From IMG/VR virus record IMGVR_UViG_3300048832_000103: a stretch of DNA of 20,000 nucleotides. One strand, given 5' to 3'. Below, in pieces: positions 571-20,000 of the stretch. This DNA comes from an uncultured virus (IMG/VR IMGVR_UViG_3300048832_000103) (Duplodnaviria > Heunggongvirae > Uroviricota > Caudoviricetes). Position 1 is the first letter of the stretch. Each line of letters starts with the position of its first letter. The notes under the pieces were generated by a model. That model made no database searches and was not told the DNA's origin. It saw only the letters and a list, made by a program, of their open reading frames with translations. A program made the position numbers and the translations under genes.

Positions 571-1353
571 TTAGTCAATTAAAAACCCATACTTTCTTGC
601 CAGTCTAGGCCCATCACTACTATATAGCGCTTTCCAAAGAAGGCGAACACTATTACCACCAAACTGAACGATATGGAATTTACTTTTACGTGTTAAACTG
701 CCAACTTCCCGAAACGTTCGCCAGCACCAGTCCCGAAATCCGTCAATTACAGTGGGATGCTTTGCTATTTTGGCGCATAAACCGCCATTTTTCCTTCTAT
801 GAAAACACCCATCTCCATCAAACAAACCCCGATAATAATGACACTCTAAATCCTCTCTCAAACATATCCGCTGTGCCTTATATGTTTTCCGTGGGACAAC
901 CCCCCACAACAAAAGCTGACTAGCGATATCGGGTGCCGTTACGCGAAGCGATATCATTTCTGATACTAATCCAGATTTTCGACGACAACTTCTCGGTATA
1001 ACTGGCCCAGTATATTGTATAAACGATGCTAATCCGTCAACAAGCTCTCTGTCCTTACTATGCAATTCGAGAGATACTAACCCTCTATCAGACACGCTTC
1101 CATCCGCCGCAAGAAGACCTGCCCAGTACGCTGTTACAGGTTCGAAATGTTCAAACGCATCATGCCTATAAGTGTATTTTCTATTTCTATCAGAAATTGT
1201 TCTTCTTTCAACACCAGCTTTTTCTAACCATTTCCTGATAGTCTCGCCACTTACGCCAAAATCTCGCGCAATCCTTGAACAATGCTCTCCACGCTCATAC
1301 CTTTGTATGATTTCTTGTACGTTAGTAAGCTCAAACTCGGACGACGAAATCAT
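571..1353 (-). CDS. Free-standing LAGLIDADG homing endonuclease with N-terminal HTH
   Basis: Two LAGLIDADG-type helices, AYWAGLLAADGSV and YYRGLFDGDGCF; N-terminal HTH (IARDFGVSGETIRKWL); C-terminal LARK. Lower GC than neighbours. Confidence 0.85.
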   Translation of the reverse strand: MISSSEFELTNVQEIIQRYERGEHCSRIARDFGVSGETIRKWLEKAGVERRTISDRNRKYTYRHDAFEHFEPVTAYWAGLLAADGSVSDRGLVSLELHSKDRELVDGLASFIQYTGPVIPRSCRRKSGLVSEMISLRVTAPDIASQLLLWGVVPRKTYKAQRICLREDLECHYYRGLFDGDGCFHRRKNGGLCAKIAKHPTVIDGFRDWCWRTFREVGSLTRKSKFHIVQFGGNSVRLLWKALYSSDGPRLARKYGFLID

Positions 1354-1909: not shown

Positions 1910-2965
1910 TCACTCCTTTATGTGTTCTATCTGCAAAGCGCATGCTCCACAGGTTGTGCAGGCGCCGTAAATCCCAGCCTCTTCAGGCAGGTCGATCACG
2001 GTGTCAAGAATCCACGACGAGCCCTGTGGGCAGGCACAGCGCCACGCTAAGAGCGGCCGCGAAGACCTCGAGATCAAGAGGAGCTGTTCCTTGTCGCGGA
2101 AGAACTTGACCACGAATCTATCGAAAACAGATTCGCCCGGTAGCAAGAGCAACCGCACCGCGGCATGACCTTCCCCACGGGCAATCAGGCGCATGTAGAC
2201 CGGAACTCTGCTCAAATCTCCCCAAATCGAGCCTTGAGCTCCAGGCCGAGCGCTCCCACGGGTATCCTCGGCAAGCTCAAAGAGCGCTTGATACTCGCCA
2301 ACTTGCTCCATGGGGAGAATCTCCGCGAGGAGCTCGAGGTCGACGGGCAACCGCTCGACGAGCAGGCGCTCTTCCTGCCATTGTCGCTGAGCGGCCTGGG
2401 CCTTGCCGGCCGGTGTCCAGCCGCCCTTGTCCCGGCGAATCTCCCCTCGAGGTACTTCGGGCAGGGGCTCGACGGCGCCGAAGGCTAGAGCGGCCTCGCA
2501 TTCGTCCTTGCCACAGCTCTTTGGTGGCACGGCCACGCCGCCCGTTCCATAGAAGAACTTCTTCGCAGGGATGAGCTCTTGGCAGACCGGGCAAAGCACC
2601 TCGGGCGCAACCACTCGAGGTCGGTGCGCGGGCTTGATGGGCTCGTTCACGCGGCCAAGCTCCACGACGAGCTTTTTCGCGTCGCAATGGAAGTGAGCGG
2701 CAAGAGCCTCGAGGCTTTCCCCATCGCGATACCTCTGAACAAGCTCGACGAGCTGGTCTGGCGTGAACTGGTACTTGTTGGGTGGAGGTCGGCGTATTGG
2801 CCTATCAGGGCTCCCAGTGATGCCGAGCTCGCGACAGACGACCTTGACCACGGTAGACCAGACCACACCAGTCTTGCGGGCAATGTCCGGGCCGGTGTGA
2901 CCCGTCTCGTACAGTTCAACGATTTCGTCGATTTGCTCGCGTGTTAAGTGAACTCCACTAGGCAT
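1910..2965 (-). CDS. Double-HTH / Zn-finger DNA-binding protein
   Basis: 351 aa with two HTH-like repeats (EIVELYETGHTGPDIARKTGV; ELVQRYRDGESLEALAAHF) and Cys clusters CPVC, CGKDEC, CAC, CTTC. Confidence 0.7.
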   Translation of the reverse strand: MPSGVHLTREQIDEIVELYETGHTGPDIARKTGVVWSTVVKVVCRELGITGSPDRPIRRPPPNKYQFTPDQLVELVQRYRDGESLEALAAHFHCDAKKLVVELGRVNEPIKPAHRPRVVAPEVLCPVCQELIPAKKFFYGTGGVAVPPKSCGKDECEAALAFGAVEPLPEVPRGEIRRDKGGWTPAGKAQAAQRQWQEERLLVERLPVDLELLAEILPMEQVGEYQALFELAEDTRGSARPGAQGSIWGDLSRVPVYMRLIARGEGHAAVRLLLLPGESVFDRFVVKFFRDKEQLLLISRSSRPLLAWRCACPQGSSWILDTVIDLPEEAGIYGACTTCGACALQIEHIKE

Positions 2966-3240
2966 TAGCGCTTGATCCTTATTGATTCCTTGACGGTGTC
3001 AAGGAGCTGTGACTCGACACACGAGCCGAGGCATGCTTGCAAGGTTGCCGAGCAGCTCTTATTTACGATTTCGATTTCGGCTATATGTTCCTTGAGAGCT
3101 TTTATTTCCGCTTCGAGGGTTTGAATTTTCTTAAGCTTTTCGTCGCCTTTGATAGCGGAAACCATTGTTAGGAACATTAGTGCTGCAACCGCCAGCATAT
3201 AAAAGATTGCTACCATACGCCCGTTCGAAAAATTTATCAT
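2965..3240 (-). CDS. Small membrane-anchored coiled-coil protein
   Basis: Hydrophobic N-terminal segment MVAIFYMLAVAALMFLTMVSAI followed by a heptad-like helix. ATG 3240 preferred over GTG 3279. Confidence 0.65.
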   Translation of the reverse strand: MINFSNGRMVAIFYMLAVAALMFLTMVSAIKGDEKLKKIQTLEAEIKALKEHIAEIEIVNKSCSATLQACLGSCVESQLLDTVKESIRIKR

Positions 3241-3269
3241 TTTTTCGCCTTTTTTAGCTCGCGAGCCTT

Positions 3270-3320
3270 TCCCTATCACGACAAATAGGTATTTGTCAAG
3301 AGGCGGTTTACATTGTAAAC
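3270..3320 (-). promoter_or_regulatory. Putative promoter with two palindromic operator-like sites
   Basis: TTGACA on the minus strand at 3299-3294 overlaps the palindrome GACAAATA-GG-TATTTGTC (3280-3297). A second palindrome GTTTACA-T-TGTAAAC lies at 3306-3320. The -10 element is weak. Confidence 0.5.
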
Positions 3321-3429
3321 AGCAAAAAAGCGTGTGAACGCTAATCGAGCGTTTGGCTCAAAATTCGCGAAAAAGGGGGTTTGGTTGTTTTGAACGCGCT
3401 TTGACCAGGTTTTTGGGGAGCTTGACCGA

Positions 3430-3690
3430 CTAGTCGGGAAGGCATGCTAAACGACGTACTTGAGAATAAGCCCAGTTAAAAAGCTGTGGTTTGGTAATAT
3501 TGGTTGGCATACGCTCAGTAATGCCAAGCTCATAACCGGCAGGACAATCCTGAGCAAACACAATCGAACCACGTTTGAAGTAAAGGTACAAAGAAATAAC
3601 ACCGGCATGCTGGCAAGCGATAACAAATGCCTCATTCACCGCTTTACTCGTTTCTTCAATTAGCCACTTTTCACTTTCTTGATGATTCAT
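3430..3690 (-). CDS. Hypothetical protein (early region)
   Basis: 86-aa ORF, ATGA-coupled to the upstream gene. Confidence 0.7.
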   Translation of the reverse strand: MNHQESEKWLIEETSKAVNEAFVIACQHAGVISLYLYFKRGSIVFAQDCPAGYELGITERMPTNITKPQLFNWAYSQVRRLACLPD

Positions 3691-11102: not shown

Positions 11103-11900
11103 TCAAATCTTGGCGTAGAGCATGAACTCGAGCTCACGGAAGAGCTTGTGCGGCGGCTTCGGGTCGAGCGTGCCGATGCCCATTAGGCCGCGAGGCTTGA
11201 GCACCTTCGCAATCTCGACCATGGTATCCTCGGCGACCGAGGCCTCGAGGTACAAGAGCAGGTTCCTGCAAAGCACGAGGTCATAGACCGCGGGCTCGAC
11301 ACCCCACCAGTCGCCCGTCCTGGTCCGAACGTCCGCAACCCTGGCATGGATGCGCGCCGCGAGCTCGGGGATGAGCCGCAGACGGTTCCCAGGGGGGATC
11401 TCCACGAGAGACTTCCAAACCCTCGGCGTCAGGAAGGTCAGCTTGTTCAAGTGCTTCTTGGGAAAGGTCGGGTTCATGGCATTCTTGACGCACTTGGGCG
11501 CGATGTCCAAGGCGTCAATCGTGATGTTCTTCTCCGAGGTGAACTGGTGCAAGAGCAGCGCAATCGTCGCGAGCTCATGCCCGTCGGAGCACCCCAGAGA
11601 CAGAACGCGCACGTTGTCCTCGGGTTTGATTTGGCAGAGAAAGTGCCGCTGCAAGGCTTCCCAGAACGTGTGATTTCGGCCGAAGTACGTCGAGTGCACC
11701 AGGCCATGATCGGCCAGGTTCGGCATCTCTTGGTCAATGTGCTCTCGGAGATACTCTAGATAGGCCTTAGCCGTGGCGAATCCGCGAGTATGTGCGTACT
11801 TTTTAATGTTCCTCTTTGAGAAGTTTTTGATGACCGAAATCTGGGCTCCAGTGTGCTCAACGAGTACGGCACAGAACTGGGCATAAACCTTCTTGTCCAC
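11103..11900 (-). CDS. cheR: CheR-like SAM-dependent protein-glutamate methyltransferase
   Basis: N-terminal helical domain ending STYFGRN (cf. TxFFR); VRVLSLGCSDGHE (cf. IWSAGCSTGEE); IDALDI; YDLVLCRNLLLY (cf. FDxIxCRNVLIY); LKPRGLMGIG. GGAGG RBS before GTG 11900. Confidence 0.85.
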   Translation of the reverse strand: MDKKVYAQFCAVLVEHTGAQISVIKNFSKRNIKKYAHTRGFATAKAYLEYLREHIDQEMPNLADHGLVHSTYFGRNHTFWEALQRHFLCQIKPEDNVRVLSLGCSDGHELATIALLLHQFTSEKNITIDALDIAPKCVKNAMNPTFPKKHLNKLTFLTPRVWKSLVEIPPGNRLRLIPELAARIHARVADVRTRTGDWWGVEPAVYDLVLCRNLLLYLEASVAEDTMVEIAKVLKPRGLMGIGTLDPKPPHKLFRELEFMLYAKI

Positions 11901-12088
11901 GACAACCTCCGGTAGAACGACAACGCTTGCGAGGCATCGAAGACCAGCTTGCAAGCGGGGCACCTAAACACCCACTCCAACGGGTCATCGCCCAGAGTGG
12001 ACACGACGATCTTCTTCGCGAATTCCACGGGAATCGGGCTCCCTCGTTGGCCGCAGTGGGGGCAGACGAGTACGGCCAGGTAGGTCAT
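11756..12088 (-). CDS. Zn-ribbon protein, C-terminal tail overlapping the CheR-like gene
   Basis: CPHC...CPAC within the first ~46 aa; ATGA-coupled to the upstream gene; last 145 nt overlap the CheR-like ORF. Confidence 0.6.
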   Translation of the reverse strand: MTYLAVLVCPHCGQRGSPIPVEFAKKIVVSTLGDDPLEWVFRCPACKLVFDASQALSFYRRLSWTRRFMPSSVPYSLSTLEPRFRSSKTSQRGTLKSTHILADSPRLRPI

Positions 12089-12612: not shown

Positions 12613-13332
12613 TCATCCTTTGCGTGTCAGCACCCATCCTATGAGGCCCCCTACTGCCGCCAAGAGCATCCACCCCCACCATCCTCGAGCCGAGCCCTGA
12701 TCAATGTTGATCAAGGCAAAATCCTGGGCCTTGGCGATCTGCGCAGGGTCGGCGCGGTAAATCTCCGACCGGACACGAGCGCACAGCTTCGCGAAGTCTT
12801 CGCCGTCGAAGGCCTTGTCCGTGTAGTAGCCACCCGTGCCGAGGGAATCCCAATACCGGGCGTCATACCCAGGCCCACCGGCAATCAAGTACCTCGCAGC
12901 GCTCGCGTAGCCGGCATTCTTCGAGGTCGGAGAGATCCGGTTCAAGAAGTCGTCTATGGCTTCCTTCCAGTTCTTGAACGCTCGCCACTGCTCGCCGGGG
13001 ACAGCATAGTAGTTGCCGGCCGCGTCCGCCTCTTGGGTGTTCATGGTGTAGTAGCCGTCGGGCCACGTACCACGCTTCACTCCCCAGGCGTTGTAATGCC
13101 AGACCTTCTGAGCCCAACCGCTCGCGAAGATGGCATGAGCGGTCATACGCGCCCGCTGGTCGGCGTTCGTGATCCCGTAGCGGGATAGAAGCGCGTCCAT
13201 GTTCAGGGCGACTTCGCTGTGATTGTTGGCTTCCGCCCAAGGAGTCTTTCGTGCGTTCAAGAGTTCGCCCAAGAGGATACCTCCATAGACCACGCCAGAG
13301 AGCAGACTCACCGTGAGGAAAGCGTTTATCAA
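12613..13332 (-). CDS. GH73/FlgJ-like peptidoglycan hydrolase domain protein with N- and C-terminal TM segments
   Basis: AHAIFASGWA (cf. AQAxLESGWG), YNAWGVK (cf. NNLFGIK), TQE, WRAFKNWKEAIDD (cf. FRxYxSxxES), GYYTD (cf. GYATD). Start placed at TTG 13332 after GGAGAGG; the track gives 13440. Confidence 0.75.
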   Translation of the reverse strand: MINAFLTVSLLSGVVYGGILLGELLNARKTPWAEANNHSEVALNMDALLSRYGITNADQRARMTAHAIFASGWAQKVWHYNAWGVKRGTWPDGYYTMNTQEADAAGNYYAVPGEQWRAFKNWKEAIDDFLNRISPTSKNAGYASAARYLIAGGPGYDARYWDSLGTGGYYTDKAFDGEDFAKLCARVRSEIYRADPAQIAKAQDFALINIDQGSARGWWGWMLLAAVGGLIGWVLTRKG

Positions 13333-13363
13333 TATAGATAGACCTCTCCCGCGAGACGCTAGT

Positions 13364-13969
13364 CTACCCTTTAGCTTTCCCACCGTCAAGCTCAAAAAAC
13401 CTTTTTTTGAATTCCATGTAGTCTCTTCTCGGGTTCGCATGACACGTGTCCAGTTCCATTAGTCGGACCTCGAGGCCCTGCCTCTGGCCGATGTACTTGT
13501 TCAAGAGCAATCGTCCGTAGTTTCGGAAAGGCCCCTCGGGAGCCAAGCTCGTGATTTCTCGAGCCATCTGTAAGTCGTCGGCATCATTTATAATTTGCAA
13601 CTGACCTTTATGCATGGGAACGCAGTCATATCGACGCCATATCAACTTCTGCCATCGGGCTTCGTACTCGTCGAGGTCCACGCCGAGCTGCTTAAGGTAG
13701 CGCTTCACCGGCCGCGTGACGTCGCCCACATAGGTCTCATGGGCATCGTGCAAGAGGGCGGCGAGACGGAGCTCGTCGGGGACCAGACGAGACACTTCCA
13801 ACGAGTGACGAGCGACCGAGATGTGGGTCGATAGGTGTCCGTTGAACCGTAGGATTCCCGCCAGACTCCATGCAATATCTTCTATATCAATGTCTTCTGA
13901 TTTAGGATCACTTAGATCAACCCAAGCACCAGAAGACACACCTAGCCAACAGGGCTCATTTGAACTCAT
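13364..13969 (-). CDS. HD-domain phosphohydrolase (YfbR/YfdR-like nucleotidase)
   Basis: IEDIAWSLA...RFNGH...SVARHS...ALLHDAHETYVGD...P.K...AD, the characteristic phage HD family pattern. Confidence 0.9.
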   Translation of the reverse strand: MSSNEPCWLGVSSGAWVDLSDPKSEDIDIEDIAWSLAGILRFNGHLSTHISVARHSLEVSRLVPDELRLAALLHDAHETYVGDVTRPVKRYLKQLGVDLDEYEARWQKLIWRRYDCVPMHKGQLQIINDADDLQMAREITSLAPEGPFRNYGRLLLNKYIGQRQGLEVRLMELDTCHANPRRDYMEFKKRFFELDGGKAKG

Positions 13970-14820: not shown

Positions 14821-15087
14821 CTATGCCTGGTGCCGCGTGTTTGCTGAATCTAAAACGACTGTGACCGGACTATCGTCTACAAGTTCACCTATTATATGCT
14901 CACGACACATTACCCAAGAGCGCCTATCGTTAGAACTCTCCGCTCGAGAAGCAATATCGAACAGAGCGCACCACGTTCCACACTGCGCAGACCCGTCACC
15001 ATAAGGACAACCAAGCTTCCGACCATCCTCGGCTACCAGGATCTTGGTGGTCTTGGTGTTCTTCCGAATTAGGCTAACCCTCTTCAC
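14821..15087 (-). CDS. Small Cys-containing hypothetical protein
   Basis: GTG 15087 in GTGA overlap with the cysH stop; CPY...CGTWCALF...C. Confidence 0.65.
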   Translation of the reverse strand: MKRVSLIRKNTKTTKILVAEDGRKLGCPYGDGSAQCGTWCALFDIASRAESSNDRRSWVMCREHIIGELVDDSPVTVVLDSANTRHQA

Positions 15088-15707
15088 GTTTTCACCGCAT
15101 GGATTCCGCACTCTAGCCTCTCACCGGCCCAGCGGCCAGAGCGCTCATCGTCCGAGGTCGGCAGGCTCGTGCAAGGCTGGCACCCAATCGACCGGTATCC
15201 CTGGCTGTGCAGCGGTTGCACTGGTACGTCGTTATCTCGAATGTATTTCCAGCATTGCTCGCTTGTCCAGTTTAGCATCGGAGCCAAACGGATCTTGCCA
15301 AACTGGTCAGGCTCGATTTCCCTTGTGTCCTTTCTCGTCGAGGCCTGGTCCCACCGAAGAGCGGAAACCCATGCCTGATAAGGCTGTAGCGCGCACCACA
15401 GTGGAAGAACCTTGTGCTCGGTGCAGCACTCTTGCGTCGGCGGGAGGTGCGTGCTCTGCGGGGGAGGTCCGACCCAGTGCAGGTCCAGATCCCATTCCCG
15501 GCCCATGAGGTTGGCGAAGTCCACGGTTTCACTGAACAGCTTGCCAGTGTCGATGGAAATGACCGGGACGTGCTCCCAGACCTTGCGGGCATGATCAAGC
15601 AGAACCATCCCTGAGTAGCCCCACGCTGTGGTGAAGATGACCTTGTCGTTGTACATGTCACGGTAGAAACTCAAAGTCTCGCGCAACCTATCAGACTTCT
15701 CTGTCAC
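15084..15707 (-). CDS. cysH: APS/PAPS reductase (Fe-S type motifs)
   Basis: IDTGKLFSET, ECCTEHKVLPL, LRWDQASTR, PMLNWT, PLHSQGYRSIGCQPCT, ERSGRW, ECGIH. GTG start in GTGA overlap. Confidence 0.93.
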   Translation of the reverse strand: MTEKSDRLRETLSFYRDMYNDKVIFTTAWGYSGMVLLDHARKVWEHVPVISIDTGKLFSETVDFANLMGREWDLDLHWVGPPPQSTHLPPTQECCTEHKVLPLWCALQPYQAWVSALRWDQASTRKDTREIEPDQFGKIRLAPMLNWTSEQCWKYIRDNDVPVQPLHSQGYRSIGCQPCTSLPTSDDERSGRWAGERLECGIHAVKT

Positions 15708-16465
15708 CAAGGTACTGGTCCTTTCAGCGCTCCGGTGAGGTTGATCACGGGAGGTCTCTCGGTCTCACCATATTTCTTAGTCCATCTCCACCATCCTGCA
15801 AGGCCTACCGCGGCCTCGAGGCCGGGAGCAGGCAAGCAGTTCACTAAGCTCTGTAGGTGCTCCAAGGCGCGGTAAATCTCCGATGCCGAGACCTCGATAG
15901 CCTCGGGGAGCTCGGGCGCGTCGGCCAGAGCAGGCGCCCAACGAGGGATGAGATCGGGCTCGGGGCGCACGGGAATGACCACGGTACTTCGAGCTGGCCA
16001 AACGGCTTTGACCGCCGCGCAACCATATCCGCCGCCTGTGGCCTGGAAGTAATGATCTGGCGGGCTATCACGGTACATTTCATGGACTTGCTGTAATATC
16101 TCTCGAGCCATAATCTGATGAGCAATCATCTTCAATTGGTTGTTGCTTCCAGCGAATAAGATAGTCCTTCCCTTATCAGACATCTCATACTCGTCCATAA
16201 CCTGCTTTATGACACGAATCCGGGGAGTCTTATCGTCCCATGTGTAAACTACAACATCTAAATCTTTGCATATACTAGTTATAGCCTCACCAGTGTTACC
16301 ACTGGTTGCTACAATAATCGTTTTCACACCCTGCAAAGCCGCAAAATGTTTCACAACCACAGCTTCGCGGTATTTAAAAGACCCCGTTGGGAGCATATAA
16401 TCACATTTCAGATAAACCATTCGGCCGCAACCGTCATCTGATAGGATGAGGGGACTTCTTATCAT
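15704..16465 (-). CDS. Fold-type II PLP enzyme, threonine-synthase family, cysteate-synthase-like
   Basis: LKCDYMLPTGSFKYRE (PLP Lys), VATSGNTG, PDHYFQATGGGYG (phosphate loop), AAVGLAG, INLTG. ATG 16465 in ATGA overlap. Confidence 0.8.
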   Translation of the reverse strand: MIRSPLILSDDGCGRMVYLKCDYMLPTGSFKYREAVVVKHFAALQGVKTIIVATSGNTGEAITSICKDLDVVVYTWDDKTPRIRVIKQVMDEYEMSDKGRTILFAGSNNQLKMIAHQIMAREILQQVHEMYRDSPPDHYFQATGGGYGCAAVKAVWPARSTVVIPVRPEPDLIPRWAPALADAPELPEAIEVSASEIYRALEHLQSLVNCLPAPGLEAAVGLAGWWRWTKKYGETERPPVINLTGALKGPVPW

Positions 16466-17274
16466 TTCTTCCATACAACACCTTTGAATTGCGTGCCGGG
16501 GTTATGATTGATTTCTATAATCACAAATTTATTATTTTTATCAAATGTTCCATCGACGGACCAATTTTGATTTCTATAACGTTTAACCTTTGGGACTATC
16601 TCTTTGTTTATCTGCTCGACTACTTCAGGAATGCCCCCAAGCTTCTCCCCAAAAGGAGCGGTCTCAAGAGATTTTTCTTTGACTACTTTAGCCGTATGAG
16701 AATCAATTGATTTCAAATCAATATCTTCTTTACTTCGAATAACACCCTCTAAGTCGACCCATATGTATTTTCTGTCCTTCCAGCCAGAGTTAGAGATTCC
16801 TGAATGTTCAAAATACAGTGGCGTTAGGCCTATAAAGCTCACTCGGTCGTGCCCAATAAGTCGGATAACCGGGGGGCATCTAATATCATCGGTGAACTTG
16901 TGTAGCCGTTCATGTGGGTAAATCCATTCCTCGGCAAACCACGAACGTACAGCCATTAATTTTTTTGGAGTGTTTAGCTTTATCTTTCTTATCCTATTTA
17001 GTTTGACCCTTAGCTTGTTAGGTGCAATTAAATCTTTATCTGGAAACATTATGAAACCTTCAGAAGTCTTCTCTAGCAGAGCTATGCCGCTGCTTTGACG
17101 ACCACTCTGAGGTTTCCACACGTATTCTCCCATAGGGGCGTTCACTAGAGCCCCTACCGTAGCATAAAACCGCCCAGGATTAATCAAGTTGTTAGGATAA
17201 GAAAAAGAGGTATTCTCGCTAAGCCAAAGCTTAGTGAAAATCTTGTTCCAAAACATTTTGGCATTTATTAACAT
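16462..17274 (-). CDS. ATP-grasp ligase (paralog 4)
   Basis: NKIFTK, YVWKPQSGRQSSGI, WFAEEWI, PVIR, WSVDG, IIEINHNPG. Confidence 0.85.
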   Translation of the reverse strand: MLINAKMFWNKIFTKLWLSENTSFSYPNNLINPGRFYATVGALVNAPMGEYVWKPQSGRQSSGIALLEKTSEGFIMFPDKDLIAPNKLRVKLNRIRKIKLNTPKKLMAVRSWFAEEWIYPHERLHKFTDDIRCPPVIRLIGHDRVSFIGLTPLYFEHSGISNSGWKDRKYIWVDLEGVIRSKEDIDLKSIDSHTAKVVKEKSLETAPFGEKLGGIPEVVEQINKEIVPKVKRYRNQNWSVDGTFDKNNKFVIIEINHNPGTQFKGVVWKK

Positions 17275-18102
17275 CTATTTCTTCTTCCAAGTGACTCCTA
17301 AAAATGGGGTTCCTATTGCAGAGTTAATTTCGATAATAACAAACCGATTATTCTTATCAAAGACTCCATCAACAGACCAGCACTTGTTATGAACTAGCTT
17401 CAATTTCGGACTAATTTCACTATTCACTTGATCGATGATTTCCTTAACGCCCTCAATTTTTTGGCCACACAAGTCCGTGTCAATACGCCTATCCACAACA
17501 GACTTTAGTGTTTTCTTGTCAGCACTAGACAGGTCCATTTCATCGGTGTGTCTTACGACACCATTAAAATCTAACCATAGATACTTCCGATGGTCCCAAC
17601 CAAAGGAAGATATGCCGACCTCGTTAAAGTATACTGGCGAAATCACAACAAAATGAACTTTACTGCGGCCGCAAATACGAATAACTGGCGGACAGCGCAT
17701 GTCATCCGTAAACGGTTTCAAGCGTTCGTGTGGCTTAATCCATTCCTCGGCAAACCACCTTCTATGACCTCGAATCTCTTTGGCCTCGGAAATAGTTAAC
17801 CGCTTTATCCTAATTAACTCTTCAATAGTGGCTTGCAAAGATAATACATCACTAGATGGAAATATCTTGTATCCGTCGGCAGTTTTATCCAGTAGAGCTA
17901 CTCCCCAACCCTTGCGGCCAAAGCATGGCTTCCACACATATTCCCCAACGGGTAACTCCTCTAATTTATTGATAGAAACGTCGAAATAATCGAGCTCTAT
18001 GCAGTTCTTAGGATAAGCAAATGTAGTATTTTCGCTAAGCCATTGCTTAGTATAAATCTTGTTTGCAAACCTTTTAGGTATTATCCTATGATTAATAATC
18101 AT
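17275..18102 (-). CDS. ATP-grasp ligase (paralog 3)
   Basis: NKIYTK, YVWKPCFGRKGWGV, WFAEEWI, PVIR, WSVDG, IIEINS. ATG 18102 in ATGA overlap. Confidence 0.85.
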   Translation of the reverse strand: MIINHRIIPKRFANKIYTKQWLSENTTFAYPKNCIELDYFDVSINKLEELPVGEYVWKPCFGRKGWGVALLDKTADGYKIFPSSDVLSLQATIEELIRIKRLTISEAKEIRGHRRWFAEEWIKPHERLKPFTDDMRCPPVIRICGRSKVHFVVISPVYFNEVGISSFGWDHRKYLWLDFNGVVRHTDEMDLSSADKKTLKSVVDRRIDTDLCGQKIEGVKEIIDQVNSEISPKLKLVHNKCWSVDGVFDKNNRFVIIEINSAIGTPFLGVTWKKK

Positions 18103-18941
18103 GGCCTTCCCGACTTCCCTTTCCATGTAACACCCAAAAATCCTGGTGCGGCCATTTTATTAATCTCGACGACAATGAATCTGTCATCTTTATCAAAGAT
18201 TCCATCAACAGACCAGCTTCGGAACTTGTTAAATTTCAGCTTAGGGCTAATTTCTCGATTTATTTGGTTTATCAGTTCTCTAACACCTTCTATTTTTTCA
18301 CCGTAAAAAGGTGTTTCTACACTTCTATCTGGTACAATTCGCTTAGTTAAAGCATTAGATTTTTTTATATTTAGCGCCTCTTCCGGTATAATCACGCCAT
18401 CGAAATCGAGCCATATATACTTGCGTTGTTTCCAACCCGTCGGCGCTATACCTGACAAATTGAGATACACTGGCGACAACGTCACAAAATGGACTCTATT
18501 CTGACCACAAACGCGAATAAGTGGGGGCAACCTTTTGTCATCGGTGAATTTATGGAAGCGTTCATGTGGATAAATCCACTCTTCTGCAAACCATTTTTTA
18601 AATCTTCCGGCTTCACGGACCTCTGAAATAGATAATCTTTTTATCCTAGTCAGTTCACAAACTAATTCTTCCGAAGACATAATTTTGTCGGACGGGTATA
18701 CTTTAAAACCTTCTACGTTTTTTTCTACTAGGGCTACACCCCAGCTTTTTCTACCATAGCAAGGCTTCCAAACATAGTTACCACAAGGTATATCAAGAAA
18801 CCGGCTAGAAGCTTTACCGAAATCATCTAAATCTATAACATTCTTAGGATAGGCAAAGGTTGTATTAGCCTGCAACCATTCCTTGGTAAAAATCTTATCG
18901 TCGAATCTTGCAGTGTTGAGACCATCCTTATTTATTCGCAT
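18099..18941 (-). CDS. ATP-grasp ligase (paralog 2)
   Basis: DDKIFTK, YVWKPCYGRKSWGV, WFAEEWI, PLIR, WSVDG, VVEINK..APG. Confidence 0.85.
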   Translation of the reverse strand: MRINKDGLNTARFDDKIFTKEWLQANTTFAYPKNVIDLDDFGKASSRFLDIPCGNYVWKPCYGRKSWGVALVEKNVEGFKVYPSDKIMSSEELVCELTRIKRLSISEVREAGRFKKWFAEEWIYPHERFHKFTDDKRLPPLIRVCGQNRVHFVTLSPVYLNLSGIAPTGWKQRKYIWLDFDGVIIPEEALNIKKSNALTKRIVPDRSVETPFYGEKIEGVRELINQINREISPKLKFNKFRSWSVDGIFDKDDRFIVVEINKMAAPGFLGVTWKGKSGRP

Positions 18942-19966
18942 GGTCGCCTCAACCCGTCGTAAGTGTTTAGATGCTTCACGTTTGGAGCATGCTCAATCTC
19001 AATGCAAACGAAGTCGACCGAACCATCCTTGTTCTGTCGATAGACACCGTCAAAAGCAAACAGTGAGTGAGGGCTCATTGCCAGACAGATCTCGTTTTTT
19101 ATCGAGTCTAGGATCTTGTCGAAGAACGGCAAGACCATCCCCGTGACGTCCTTCACCGTCCCGTAGTTCTCAATGGACCAGGGCAAGTCGTTTGGCACGT
19201 CTGGCCGAGTCTGGAGGAGCTCTCCCTTGTAGTTGAAGCAAACCCGCCGAGCCCCGCCCTGCAAGGTTCCCCGACCTCGAGAGGCTTTCGTCGGTATGTG
19301 GAGCTCCCCGAAGTGGAAATCTCCTCGGCTCATGATGATTCGCACGAGCGGATTGAACGGGGCATCATACCCAAGGGTTTTCAATTCGTCGGGTGCCGGC
19401 GAGACGTACTCTTCCACGATCCATTTAAAAGACGCGGGAGCTTTGGGGATGTCTGAAACAATATCAACAAACAACTCATTGGAATCAAGTAGACGTAAAT
19501 TAGCATCCCTGAATCCAATATTGTTTGGTTCCTTCCAAACCATGCGAACTCCCCTCGAACGAGACAGATTAACAGGTTTCACTATTATCCAACGTTCTGT
19601 AGGACAGCTTGTGCCTACCAGCCAATCACATAGTTCTTTCCAAGTAGCAGAGCATACTAACGTAGGAGGAATATTGAATGATGTATTAGCTAACAACCAG
19701 TTCTTAGTCCAAGATTTGTTCCATGTAGACCTCAACACTTTATTGTATTGTACTGGCGCATTCCTTCTTCGGTTTGCATGCAACCGTTTAGGATTTATAA
19801 CATTAGGCCCTACTGGAGAAGTTATTGCAACCTTACCCATCTTTTGGCCTCTTTCGTGGTGTCTTAGAGCGTACAATATGTCTGGGAGCTTTCTTTGGCT
19901 CCTTATCAGACTTAGCAGCTTGAGCTTTTTTTGCTCGCGCCGCTCTCTCAAAAGGTCCAGTTCCAT
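18932..19966 (-). CDS. ATP-grasp ligase, alpha-L-glutamate-ligase-related (RimK-related) (paralog 1)
   Basis: NRRRN...YN...NKSWTK, IVKPVNLSRSRGV, WIVEEYV, PLVRII, LHIPTKASRGRGTLQGGA (cf. LRLPTxxSxGxANLHQG), FD, IEIEHAP. The frame is open to the window edge, so the start could lie further upstream. Confidence 0.8.
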   Translation of the reverse strand: MELDLLRERREQKKLKLLSLIRSQRKLPDILYALRHHERGQKMGKVAITSPVGPNVINPKRLHANRRRNAPVQYNKVLRSTWNKSWTKNWLLANTSFNIPPTLVCSATWKELCDWLVGTSCPTERWIIVKPVNLSRSRGVRMVWKEPNNIGFRDANLRLLDSNELFVDIVSDIPKAPASFKWIVEEYVSPAPDELKTLGYDAPFNPLVRIIMSRGDFHFGELHIPTKASRGRGTLQGGARRVCFNYKGELLQTRPDVPNDLPWSIENYGTVKDVTGMVLPFFDKILDSIKNEICLAMSPHSLFAFDGVYRQNKDGSVDFVCIEIEHAPNVKHLNTYDGLRRPCE

Positions 19967-20000
19967 GTTCAGACATGAACTTGCCTGGTGAACTGGCCAG

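Follow-up and report, generated by a model that had tools for sequence, protein, structure and literature searches.

A probable sulfur-conjugate biosynthetic module of ATP-grasp paralogues, a small PLP enzyme and CysH in an uncultured phage lineage

We analysed a stretch of 20,000 nucleotides (nt) from an uncultured virus of the Caudoviricetes (IMG/VR record IMGVR_UViG_3300048832_000103), hereafter the window, in which a 4.9-kb block of six genes encodes four predicted ATP-grasp enzymes (AG1 to AG4), a pyridoxal 5'-phosphate (PLP) enzyme and a sulfonucleotide reductase, CysH. Our results suggest that the genes of this block are probably inherited together in an uncultured phage lineage as a single biosynthetic module, building a sulfur-containing amino-acid conjugate. 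The enzymes are of known kinds and their combination is undescribed, rare and lineage-specific; overall, the initial annotation of the block as a sulfonate-tailoring operon, in which sulfite would pass through cysteate to ATP-dependent ligation, is partly supported.

The six open reading frames (ORFs) lie on the minus strand at 15084–19966, with exactly the coordinates first given to them, and are co-oriented and joined by overlapping or abutting stops and starts. Together with a small ORF that follows them, they are, in the order of reading:

AG1, 18932..19966, minus strand: divergent, longer ATP-grasp paralogue, 344 amino acids (aa) as called
AG2, 18099..18941, minus strand: short-type ATP-grasp paralogue, 280 aa
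AG3, 17275..18126, minus strand: short-type ATP-grasp paralogue, 283 aa
AG4, 16462..17274, minus strand: short-type ATP-grasp paralogue, 270 aa
PLP enzyme, 15704..16474, minus strand: minimal fold-type-II enzyme of an orphan family, 256 aa
CysH, 15084..15710, minus strand: predicted Fe-S type reductase of adenosine 5'-phosphosulfate (APS) or 3'-phosphoadenosine 5'-phosphosulfate (PAPS), 208 aa, TTG start
p96, 14821..15111, minus strand: small conserved Cys-rich ORF, overlapping the end of CysH by 28 nt

From AG1 to CysH, successive genes overlap by 10, 28, 0, 13 and 7 nt, and the 28-nt overlap between AG2 and AG3 becomes a 4-nt ATGA overlap if AG3 begins at Met9 (18102), which is the start position of its relatives. 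The ratio of nonsynonymous to synonymous substitution rates (dN/dS), obtained against two related contigs, is 0.03–0.19 for all six genes, indicating purifying selection, with the values for the AG genes being rough because their dS exceeds 1. Given these ratios and the conserved homologues, we consider the six ORFs to be real genes; plus-strand ORFs across the same DNA (e.g. 19233–19991) had no match in anything tested.

The identity first proposed for CysH holds. Its sequence solidly supports a bona fide thioredoxin-type Fe-S sulfonucleotide reductase of the APS-reductase type, predicted to turn host APS or PAPS into sulfite. The protein scores above the cut-offs of PF01507 (119.4 bits, cut-off 22.5, E = 2e-34) and of the NCBIfam equivalog NF002537 (173.2 bits, cut-off 154), and under those of TIGR02055 (149.9 against 235.3 bits) and TIGR00434 (143.2 against 165.1 bits). 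Motifs C95-C96, C177/C180 (CxxC) and E200-C201-G202-x-H204 (ECGIH) do not vary across an alignment of 22 phage and cellular sequences, and we take them to be the Fe-S cluster ligands and the catalytic cysteine. A preprint by Kieft et al. likewise gives CC...CxxC as the Fe-S cluster motif of the cysH product (10.1101/2021.01.05.425418). Phage homologues form a group of 16 clusters, with 204–209 aa and 56–87% identity to the CysH of the window, and the next matches are cellular and at most 45% identical; this gap in identity suggests that the gene has long been resident in the lineage. A thioredoxin gene is present in a 94%-complete relative (G003) and was not found in a 60%-complete one (G002). 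G003 contains no sulfite reductase domain (PF01077), and neither a sulfurylase nor an APS kinase appeared when 80 of its ORFs were compared with Pfam. When species-representative genomes were scanned with CysH, the only match was of 19 residues, in a Thermoguttaceae genome, and is no clue to the host.

The PLP gene product is an intact but unusually small (256 aa) fold-type-II enzyme, among the smallest of its kind seen. Membership of PF00291, which had been expected of it, was recovered (63.7 bits, cut-off 35), and its AlphaFold2 model (predicted local distance difference test, pLDDT, 82) confirms the fold. Segments GSFKYREA (with Lys34), SGNT (S58-G-N-T61) and YFQATGxGxG (G147/G149/G151) are invariant in 10 aligned members of a family that has just 11 relatives among 5.8 billion clusters, all of 247–256 aa and 40–88% identical to the enzyme. 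Sequence profiles and the model place the enzyme in no curated subfamily, and a weak likeness to cysteate synthase makes that activity possible but not established. In its favour, the best single-sequence match among 177,635 distinct Protein Data Bank (PDB) chain sequences is the cysteate synthase 9k3c (E = 2e-4). The C-terminal half of the protein has the same top chain, through PDxYFQAxGxG, at an E of 1 that is not significant alone and stands beside an unrelated EccD5 chain (E = 1.2). The fold is nearest, among others, to beta-replacement enzymes (TrpB, CysM, O-phosphoserine sulfhydrylase, CysK and CapA1 of Capnocytophaga ochracea), with structural matches at Z 22–23.5 across many fold-type-II enzymes. 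O-phosphoserine sulfhydrylase leads them (Z 23.5), followed by CysK (22.9), CapA1 (9k2p; 22.8), IlvA and aspartate racemase (both 22.7), and ThrC and TrpB at slightly lower values; CapA1, taken here as the enzyme that makes cysteate for capnine synthesis, is thus within 1 Z of all the others. A prediction of a complex between the PLP enzyme and CysH, run without controls, scored 0.00 and says nothing for or against an interaction.

AG1 to AG4 appear, by fold and remote homology only, to be ATP-grasp enzymes whose nearest family is PF14397 (ATPgrasp_ST). The four ATP-grasp ligases of the initial annotation therefore stand as to fold and nearest family, although every score of the window proteins is under the Pfam and NCBIfam cut-offs. 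AG3 reaches 17.9 bits with PF14397 (cut-off 31.4), to which the other three give no match, and is also the only one to match rimK_fam (TIGR00768; 19 bits, cut-off 143.4). AG4 matches PF14398 under its cut-off (15.9 bits), AG1 and AG2 have no direct Pfam or NCBIfam match, and TIGR02291, one of the models suggested at the outset, matched none of the six proteins at E ≤ 0.01.

With the AlphaFold2 model of AG3 (pLDDT 71), all listed Foldseek matches in the PDB are ATP-grasp enzymes, 76 of them with E ≤ 0.001, at TM scores of only about 0.4. They include ArgX/LysX, L-amino-acid ligases, D-Ala-D-Ala ligases (Ddl), which rank high, TTL, RimK, cyanophycin synthetase, PurK and a bifunctional glutathione synthetase. 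A protein-atlas search places AG3 beside clusters labelled PF14397 'sugar-transfer associated' and 'alpha-L-glutamate ligase-related' (feature scores 0.94), and its structure matches there (TM 0.69–0.74) comprise nine rows of PF14397 and one TupA-like row. A profile of the paralogues retrieved only 24 proteins among 1.84 billion representatives. PF14397 matches 13 of the 16 distant family members at E ≤ 0.01 and four of them above its cut-off (P0032, P0037, P0039 and P0045; 33.3–96.6 bits), and we read the AG family as a probable remote branch of PF14397. Residues K66, E127-E128, R150, D253 and E266 do not vary between the four paralogue types, all of which therefore look catalytically competent; we take these residues to be the conserved lysine, the acidic hinge, the arginine and the Mg-binding acidic residues of ATP-grasp enzymes.

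A maximum-likelihood tree separates a deep AG1 type, which groups with P0150, P0032 and P0151, from a short type comprising three orthogroups, AG2, AG3 and AG4, each with support of 100/99. AG1 is 24% identical to AG3 and keeps the K, EE, R, D and E columns. Its basic N-terminal stretch of about 40–90 aa is variable, the ORFs of relatives measuring 286–369 aa, and its true start may be Met43, at 19840. Values of dN/dS are 0.09–0.13 for AG1, 0.12 for AG2 and 0.03–0.04 for AG3. All six arrays seen whole (the window and loci L001, L002, L009, L011 and L012) consist of AG1 plus two or three short copies, always including AG3, and the three incomplete loci in which the PLP gene is still visible (L010, L017 and L018) each have an AG3-type copy. 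The window and L001 contain four AG genes; AG2 is absent from L002, and AG4 from L009, L011 and L012. In a distant group, three family members belonging to three deep clades share one 6,085-bp record fingerprint, which suggests that the multi-paralogue set may be old. Separately, AG1 of the window (18932–19966) and AG1 of L001 (8161–9192) share only 84% identity, against 99–100% from AG2 to the gene for an HD-domain phosphohydrolase further downstream, pointing to a local recombination patch or to a hypervariable gene at the head of the array.

We consider it reasonably probable that the six genes form one functional unit. Among the 12 related loci, which were retrieved by AG similarity, the PLP gene comes next in all eight that extend beyond the last AG gene, CysH comes next in all seven that extend beyond the PLP gene, and p96 follows CysH in all six that reach it (L001, L002, L009, L010, L011 and L018; 78–99% identity). 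The order and integrity of the block are kept, and the three gene types predicted to co-occur do so, in every related contig reaching far enough, all of which belong to a single lineage. Somewhat more independent evidence comes from P0025, a PLP homologue of 47% identity, and P0067, a CysH homologue of 59% identity, which share the record fingerprint '3 contigs, longest 62951', so that both genes apparently co-occur in a more distant phage; P0023, P0007 and P0060 likewise share the record fingerprint 11,335. All three families are rare and lineage-specific, and confined to what seems the same set of phage contigs of about 60–70 kb. Scans of IMG/VR with the distant members P0026, P0029, P0032 and P0049 found nothing, and a scan of species-representative genomes with alignment A2, in which only two peptide patterns were used, found no relative.

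The window itself is phage DNA. PHROGs and Pfam models identify in it an endonuclease, an HD-type deoxynucleotide phosphatase (phrog_318, E = 1.8e-37) and lysis-like proteins, and the neighbouring DNA in L001, a near-identical contig, encodes a Gam-like protein, a DenV-like glycosylase, a PD-(D/E)XK exonuclease, Sak4, a deoxycytidine monophosphate (dCMP) deaminase, an exonuclease and a polymerase. The window is 98% identical to a 42-kb IMG/VR contig across 13312–19996 and about 81% identical to the 65.6-kb contig G003. No cultured relative emerged from 50,697 GenBank phage records: megablast of 15000–20000 gave no match, nor did tblastn searches of these records with AG1 (E limit 1e-5) and with AG3 (E limit 1e-3); the PLP enzyme had a single weak match, in a Staphylococcus phage record (27.5% identity, E = 2e-4). 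Near-identical DNA occurs in wetland and soil metagenomes (20 runs from 11 studies), with at least half of the sampled words present in four of the 20 runs. Contigs from four of these runs cover 28–30 of 30 bins, without joints or deletion variants, and none of the 20 runs is an RNA data set from which expression could be read. The window has no tRNA or Rfam match, and terminator-like sites are not enriched in it (6 observed, 8.8 expected).

Our tentative proposal for the chemistry is a route from sulfite through cysteate to ligation. CysH would reduce host APS or PAPS to sulfite, and the PLP enzyme, translationally coupled to it, would convert a serine derivative (O-phosphoserine, O-acetylserine or serine) to aminoacrylate and capture the sulfite through beta-replacement, giving L-cysteate or a close sulfonated amino acid. 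The PLP enzyme would then use sulfite directly, and sulfite reductase would not be needed. One AG1-type and two or three short-type amide ligases, acting by ATP/acyl-phosphate chemistry, would join the sulfonated amino acid stepwise, perhaps with others, to an acceptor with a carboxylate or an amine; this could be a small peptide, a protein (at its C-terminus or a side chain) or an acidic sugar within a glycan of the cell surface. The 7-nt overlap between the PLP stop and the CysH start is consistent with this route, as is the genome of G003, which is without PF01077 yet has thioredoxin. The route appears to be the simplest chemistry that uses the adjacent gene products and leaves no enzyme missing. 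The more specific idea, that an initiating AG and two or three elongating AGs attach one or several acidic sulfonate residues to a macromolecule (host or virion protein, surface glycan or nucleic acid), we rate as unlikely.

Several observations weigh against the route or against the unity of the block. The claim of a cysteate-synthase-like PLP enzyme was not borne out by the profiles: the protein scores 26.7 bits with TIGR03844, the cysteate synthase model, over residues 27–82 only and with a cut-off of 324.9, and all 26 of its NCBIfam matches are far under their cut-offs (e.g. thrC, 35.7 against 167 bits). Neither profile nor fold comparisons of the protein separate cysteate synthase from racemases, dehydratases, CysK or TrpB. 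The top 50 structural matches of the model all fall within 1.3 Z and do not discriminate, and the profile of the family matches best, in the PDB, aspartate racemase 5ybw (7.9e-8), then serine racemases (to 1e-5), with cysteate synthase at 1e-5. Packing is equally tight downstream through at least five further co-oriented genes (overlaps of 28, -11, 95, 4 and 77 nt), namely p96, two proteins whose hydrophobic stretches were read from the sequence, the HD phosphohydrolase and a glucosaminidase-like protein, and in L001 the same strand continues upstream to a family-A DNA polymerase fused to a uracil-DNA-glycosylase (UDG) domain. Stops that overlap starts are thus usual in this phage, and they are no evidence for a dedicated operon. 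The co-occurrence in the 12 related loci is not independent either, with all of them in one lineage and PLP identities of at least 81%. GC content at third codon positions (GC3) is 0.72 in CysH, 0.53 in the PLP gene and 0.35–0.42 in AG2 to AG4, and dS differs too, suggesting separate origins of the genes. AG copy number is three or four among close relatives, a poor fit to a product of fixed structure. Finally, no acceptor or carrier gene was identified in the examined DNA: beyond position 20000, where APS kinase, sulfurylase or a substrate gene had been sought following the initial annotation, there are only two small ORFs and the UDG-fused polymerase, and none of these is an APS kinase, a sulfurylase or an obvious substrate gene.

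Three other explanations account for parts of the same evidence. The first holds that CysH and a CysK-like PLP enzyme are auxiliary genes boosting host sulfate assimilation, with the host sulfite reductase acting between them, and that the ligases make a thiol peptide, as glutathione-type ATP-grasp synthetases do, or are unrelated; we find it improbable. According to the preprint cited above, both cysH and cysK are frequent among viral organosulfur genes, and the T/SSGN substrate motif that it gives for CysK is present in the PLP enzyme, but its other CysK motifs, KDR and GT/SgGT, are not, and FKYR and TGGGYG stand in their place (10.1101/2021.01.05.425418). Similarly, the best structural matches of the enzyme include CysK, CysM and O-phosphoserine sulfhydrylase, and the bifunctional glutathione synthetase is among the fold matches of AG3, yet cysK models score the enzyme at only 22–25 bits, with cut-offs near 350. 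This explanation also has to accommodate that the lineage kept its own very divergent 256-aa enzyme and not a host-like CysK, and it requires an enzyme of the host to act between the products of two phage genes whose translation is coupled.

A second possibility, which we consider doubtful, is that the PLP enzyme is a serine or aspartate racemase, or a dehydratase, feeding a D- or modified amino acid to Ddl-like ligases for peptidoglycan remodelling or a D-amino-acid peptide, with CysH as a bystander. The racemases that head the PDB profile matches (5ybw and the serine racemases) argue for it, as do the high rank of D-Ala-D-Ala ligases among the fold matches of AG3 and the glycine loop TGGGYG, which resembles the tetraglycine loop of dehydratases and racemases. 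The block also lies just upstream of genes for membrane proteins, as read from their sequence, and of the glucosaminidase-like gene. However, the differences in score between the enzyme families are small, and a bystander role for CysH is difficult to reconcile with the 7-nt overlap of its gene with the PLP gene, with the adjacency of the two in seven of seven loci, or with the seeming co-occurrence of both genes where they are 47% and 59% identical to those of the window.

Thirdly, there might be no shared pathway at all: the AGs would take ordinary amino acids as substrates and serve in host takeover or surface modification, for example through RimK/TTL-like glutamylation or the acidic-sugar amidation proposed for PF14397, and the PLP enzyme and CysH would be unrelated passengers of the same long transcription unit. 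Such an arrangement would agree with the equally tight packing across at least 11 genes of varied function and with the sharply different base composition of the AG genes and CysH, and an arms-race function would fit the variable AG copy number and the local hypervariability of AG1 (84% against 99–100% identity, in L001); moreover, Pfam describes PF14397 as associated with sugar transfer. We nevertheless give it little credence, considering that the block is intact and constant in order in all related contigs and that the three families are confined to apparently the same phage contigs of about 60–70 kb.

Two further ideas were considered: DNA hypermodification via 5-hydroxymethyl pyrimidines was dropped as a lead because neither G002 nor G003 contains a thymidylate-synthase homologue, which leaves other base chemistries standing, and a defence or anti-defence role found no PADLOC match at E ≤ 0.01 save two weak ones of CysH, through PAPS-reductase domains, to BrxP (4e-6) and QueC (8.5e-4).

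If the AGs did attach such sulfonate residues to a macromolecule, the block would make a new kind of phage covalent modification and give viral cysH a role outside cysteine synthesis; a product that modified macromolecules of the host or the virion would represent new chemistry in phage–host conflict. The module joins a genuine viral CysH with several amide ligases and a PLP enzyme of the lineage's own, which offers a testable case of sulfite serving as a building block and not only as a stage on the way to cysteine. It is also a compact system for finding a first substrate of the uncharacterised PF14397-type ATP-grasp ligases, and for work on an exceptionally small fold-type-II PLP enzyme.

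The DNA around the block shows other features. p96, which is under purifying selection (dN/dS 0.11), has no Pfam match at E ≤ 1 and no PADLOC match at E ≤ 0.01, and is possibly an accessory protein; its candidacy as a LysW-like carrier is unsupported, as it has no family match and its C-terminus is not acidic. Further downstream, the HD-domain protein, which resembles deoxynucleotide monophosphatases (13364–13969, minus strand; the phrog_318 match above), overlaps by 77 nt the gene for the glucosaminidase-like protein (12613–13440, minus strand), of 275 aa and with hydrophobic ends. Upstream of the HD gene, ORFs p127 and p184 are membrane- and coiled-coil-like, and these genes may be a lysis cassette. 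At 11103–11963 (minus strand) there is a CheR-type S-adenosylmethionine (SAM) methyltransferase gene (PF01739, 68.6 bits), with 82–90% identity in relatives. CheR enzymes methylate protein glutamates, and a link of this gene to the ligases is conceivable.

The polymerase just past position 20000 of the window (L001, 5078–7588) has 836 aa and comprises an N-terminal domain of the uracil-DNA-glycosylase superfamily, a 3'-5' exonuclease and a family-A polymerase. In L001 the dCMP deaminase gene lies between the Sak4-like and exonuclease genes (3054–3470), and it is missing from that place in L002 (3558–4883). The genome is a mosaic: GC content ranges from 39% to 61% per kb along the window, and GC3 is 0.53 in AG1, 0.70 in the glucosaminidase-like gene and 0.77 in the CheR-like gene. 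A 61%-GC stretch contains an endonuclease-like gene (571–1353, minus strand; phrog_4645, E = 1.2e-32) and the gene for a 351-aa helix-turn-helix protein (1910–2965, minus strand), which belongs to the segment that G003 has at either end. That contig (loci L003 to L006; 1986–3721 and 63850–65585) carries at both ends the same stretch of about 3.5 kb, with ORFs of 212, 123, 72, 122, 351 and 91 aa, which implies that the genome is terminally redundant or the assembly circular, although its record gives it as linear.

Literature searches found no paper describing a phage module of ATP-grasp ligases, a PLP enzyme and CysH. Those under the names PF14397 and ATPgrasp_ST found no paper, those linking cysteate to ATP-grasp found none, and those linking cysteate synthase to phage returned none about a phage enzyme, as judged from the listing; a search joining ATP-grasp, cysH and phage yielded, among others, a paper on an unrelated Xanthomonas phage. 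PF14397 proteins, whose solved relatives are RimK, LysX/ArgX and Ddl, share with the AGs the ATP-grasp fold and the K, EE, R, D and E columns, and we know of no member of that family with a tested function. Unlike them, the phage AGs form sets of one AG1-type gene with two or three of the short type, and genes for a PLP enzyme and CysH adjoin these sets. The cysteate synthases, of the ThrC type (TIGR03844; 9k3c) and CapA1 (9k2p), have in common with the phage PLP enzyme the fold-type-II fold and an SFK motif that contains the PLP lysine, and 9k3c also shares the PDxYFQAxGxG phosphate loop; however, they are of 333–435 aa, against 256 aa, and racemases, dehydratases, CysK and TrpB match the phage enzyme as well as or better than they do. 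Cysteate synthase is described, in PMC11211663, as the first step of sulfonolipid synthesis.

Cellular CysH shares with the phage protein the domain, the equivalog-level score, CC...CxxC and the C-terminal ECGIH with the catalytic cysteine; in comparison, phage CysH is shorter (208 aa against about 220–250) and truncated at the N-terminus, with an 11-residue deletion ahead of the CC pair. In the preprint by Kieft et al. (10.1101/2021.01.05.425418), cysH ranks first in abundance among organosulfur auxiliary genes on viral genomes, its role is debated, and it is suggested that it may serve the direct sulfonation of organic molecules. The genes of that study are, as here, phage-borne cysH with CC...CxxC; its main text has no occurrence of either ATP-grasp or cysteate, whereas in the lineage that we describe cysH is coupled to a PLP enzyme and to ligases.

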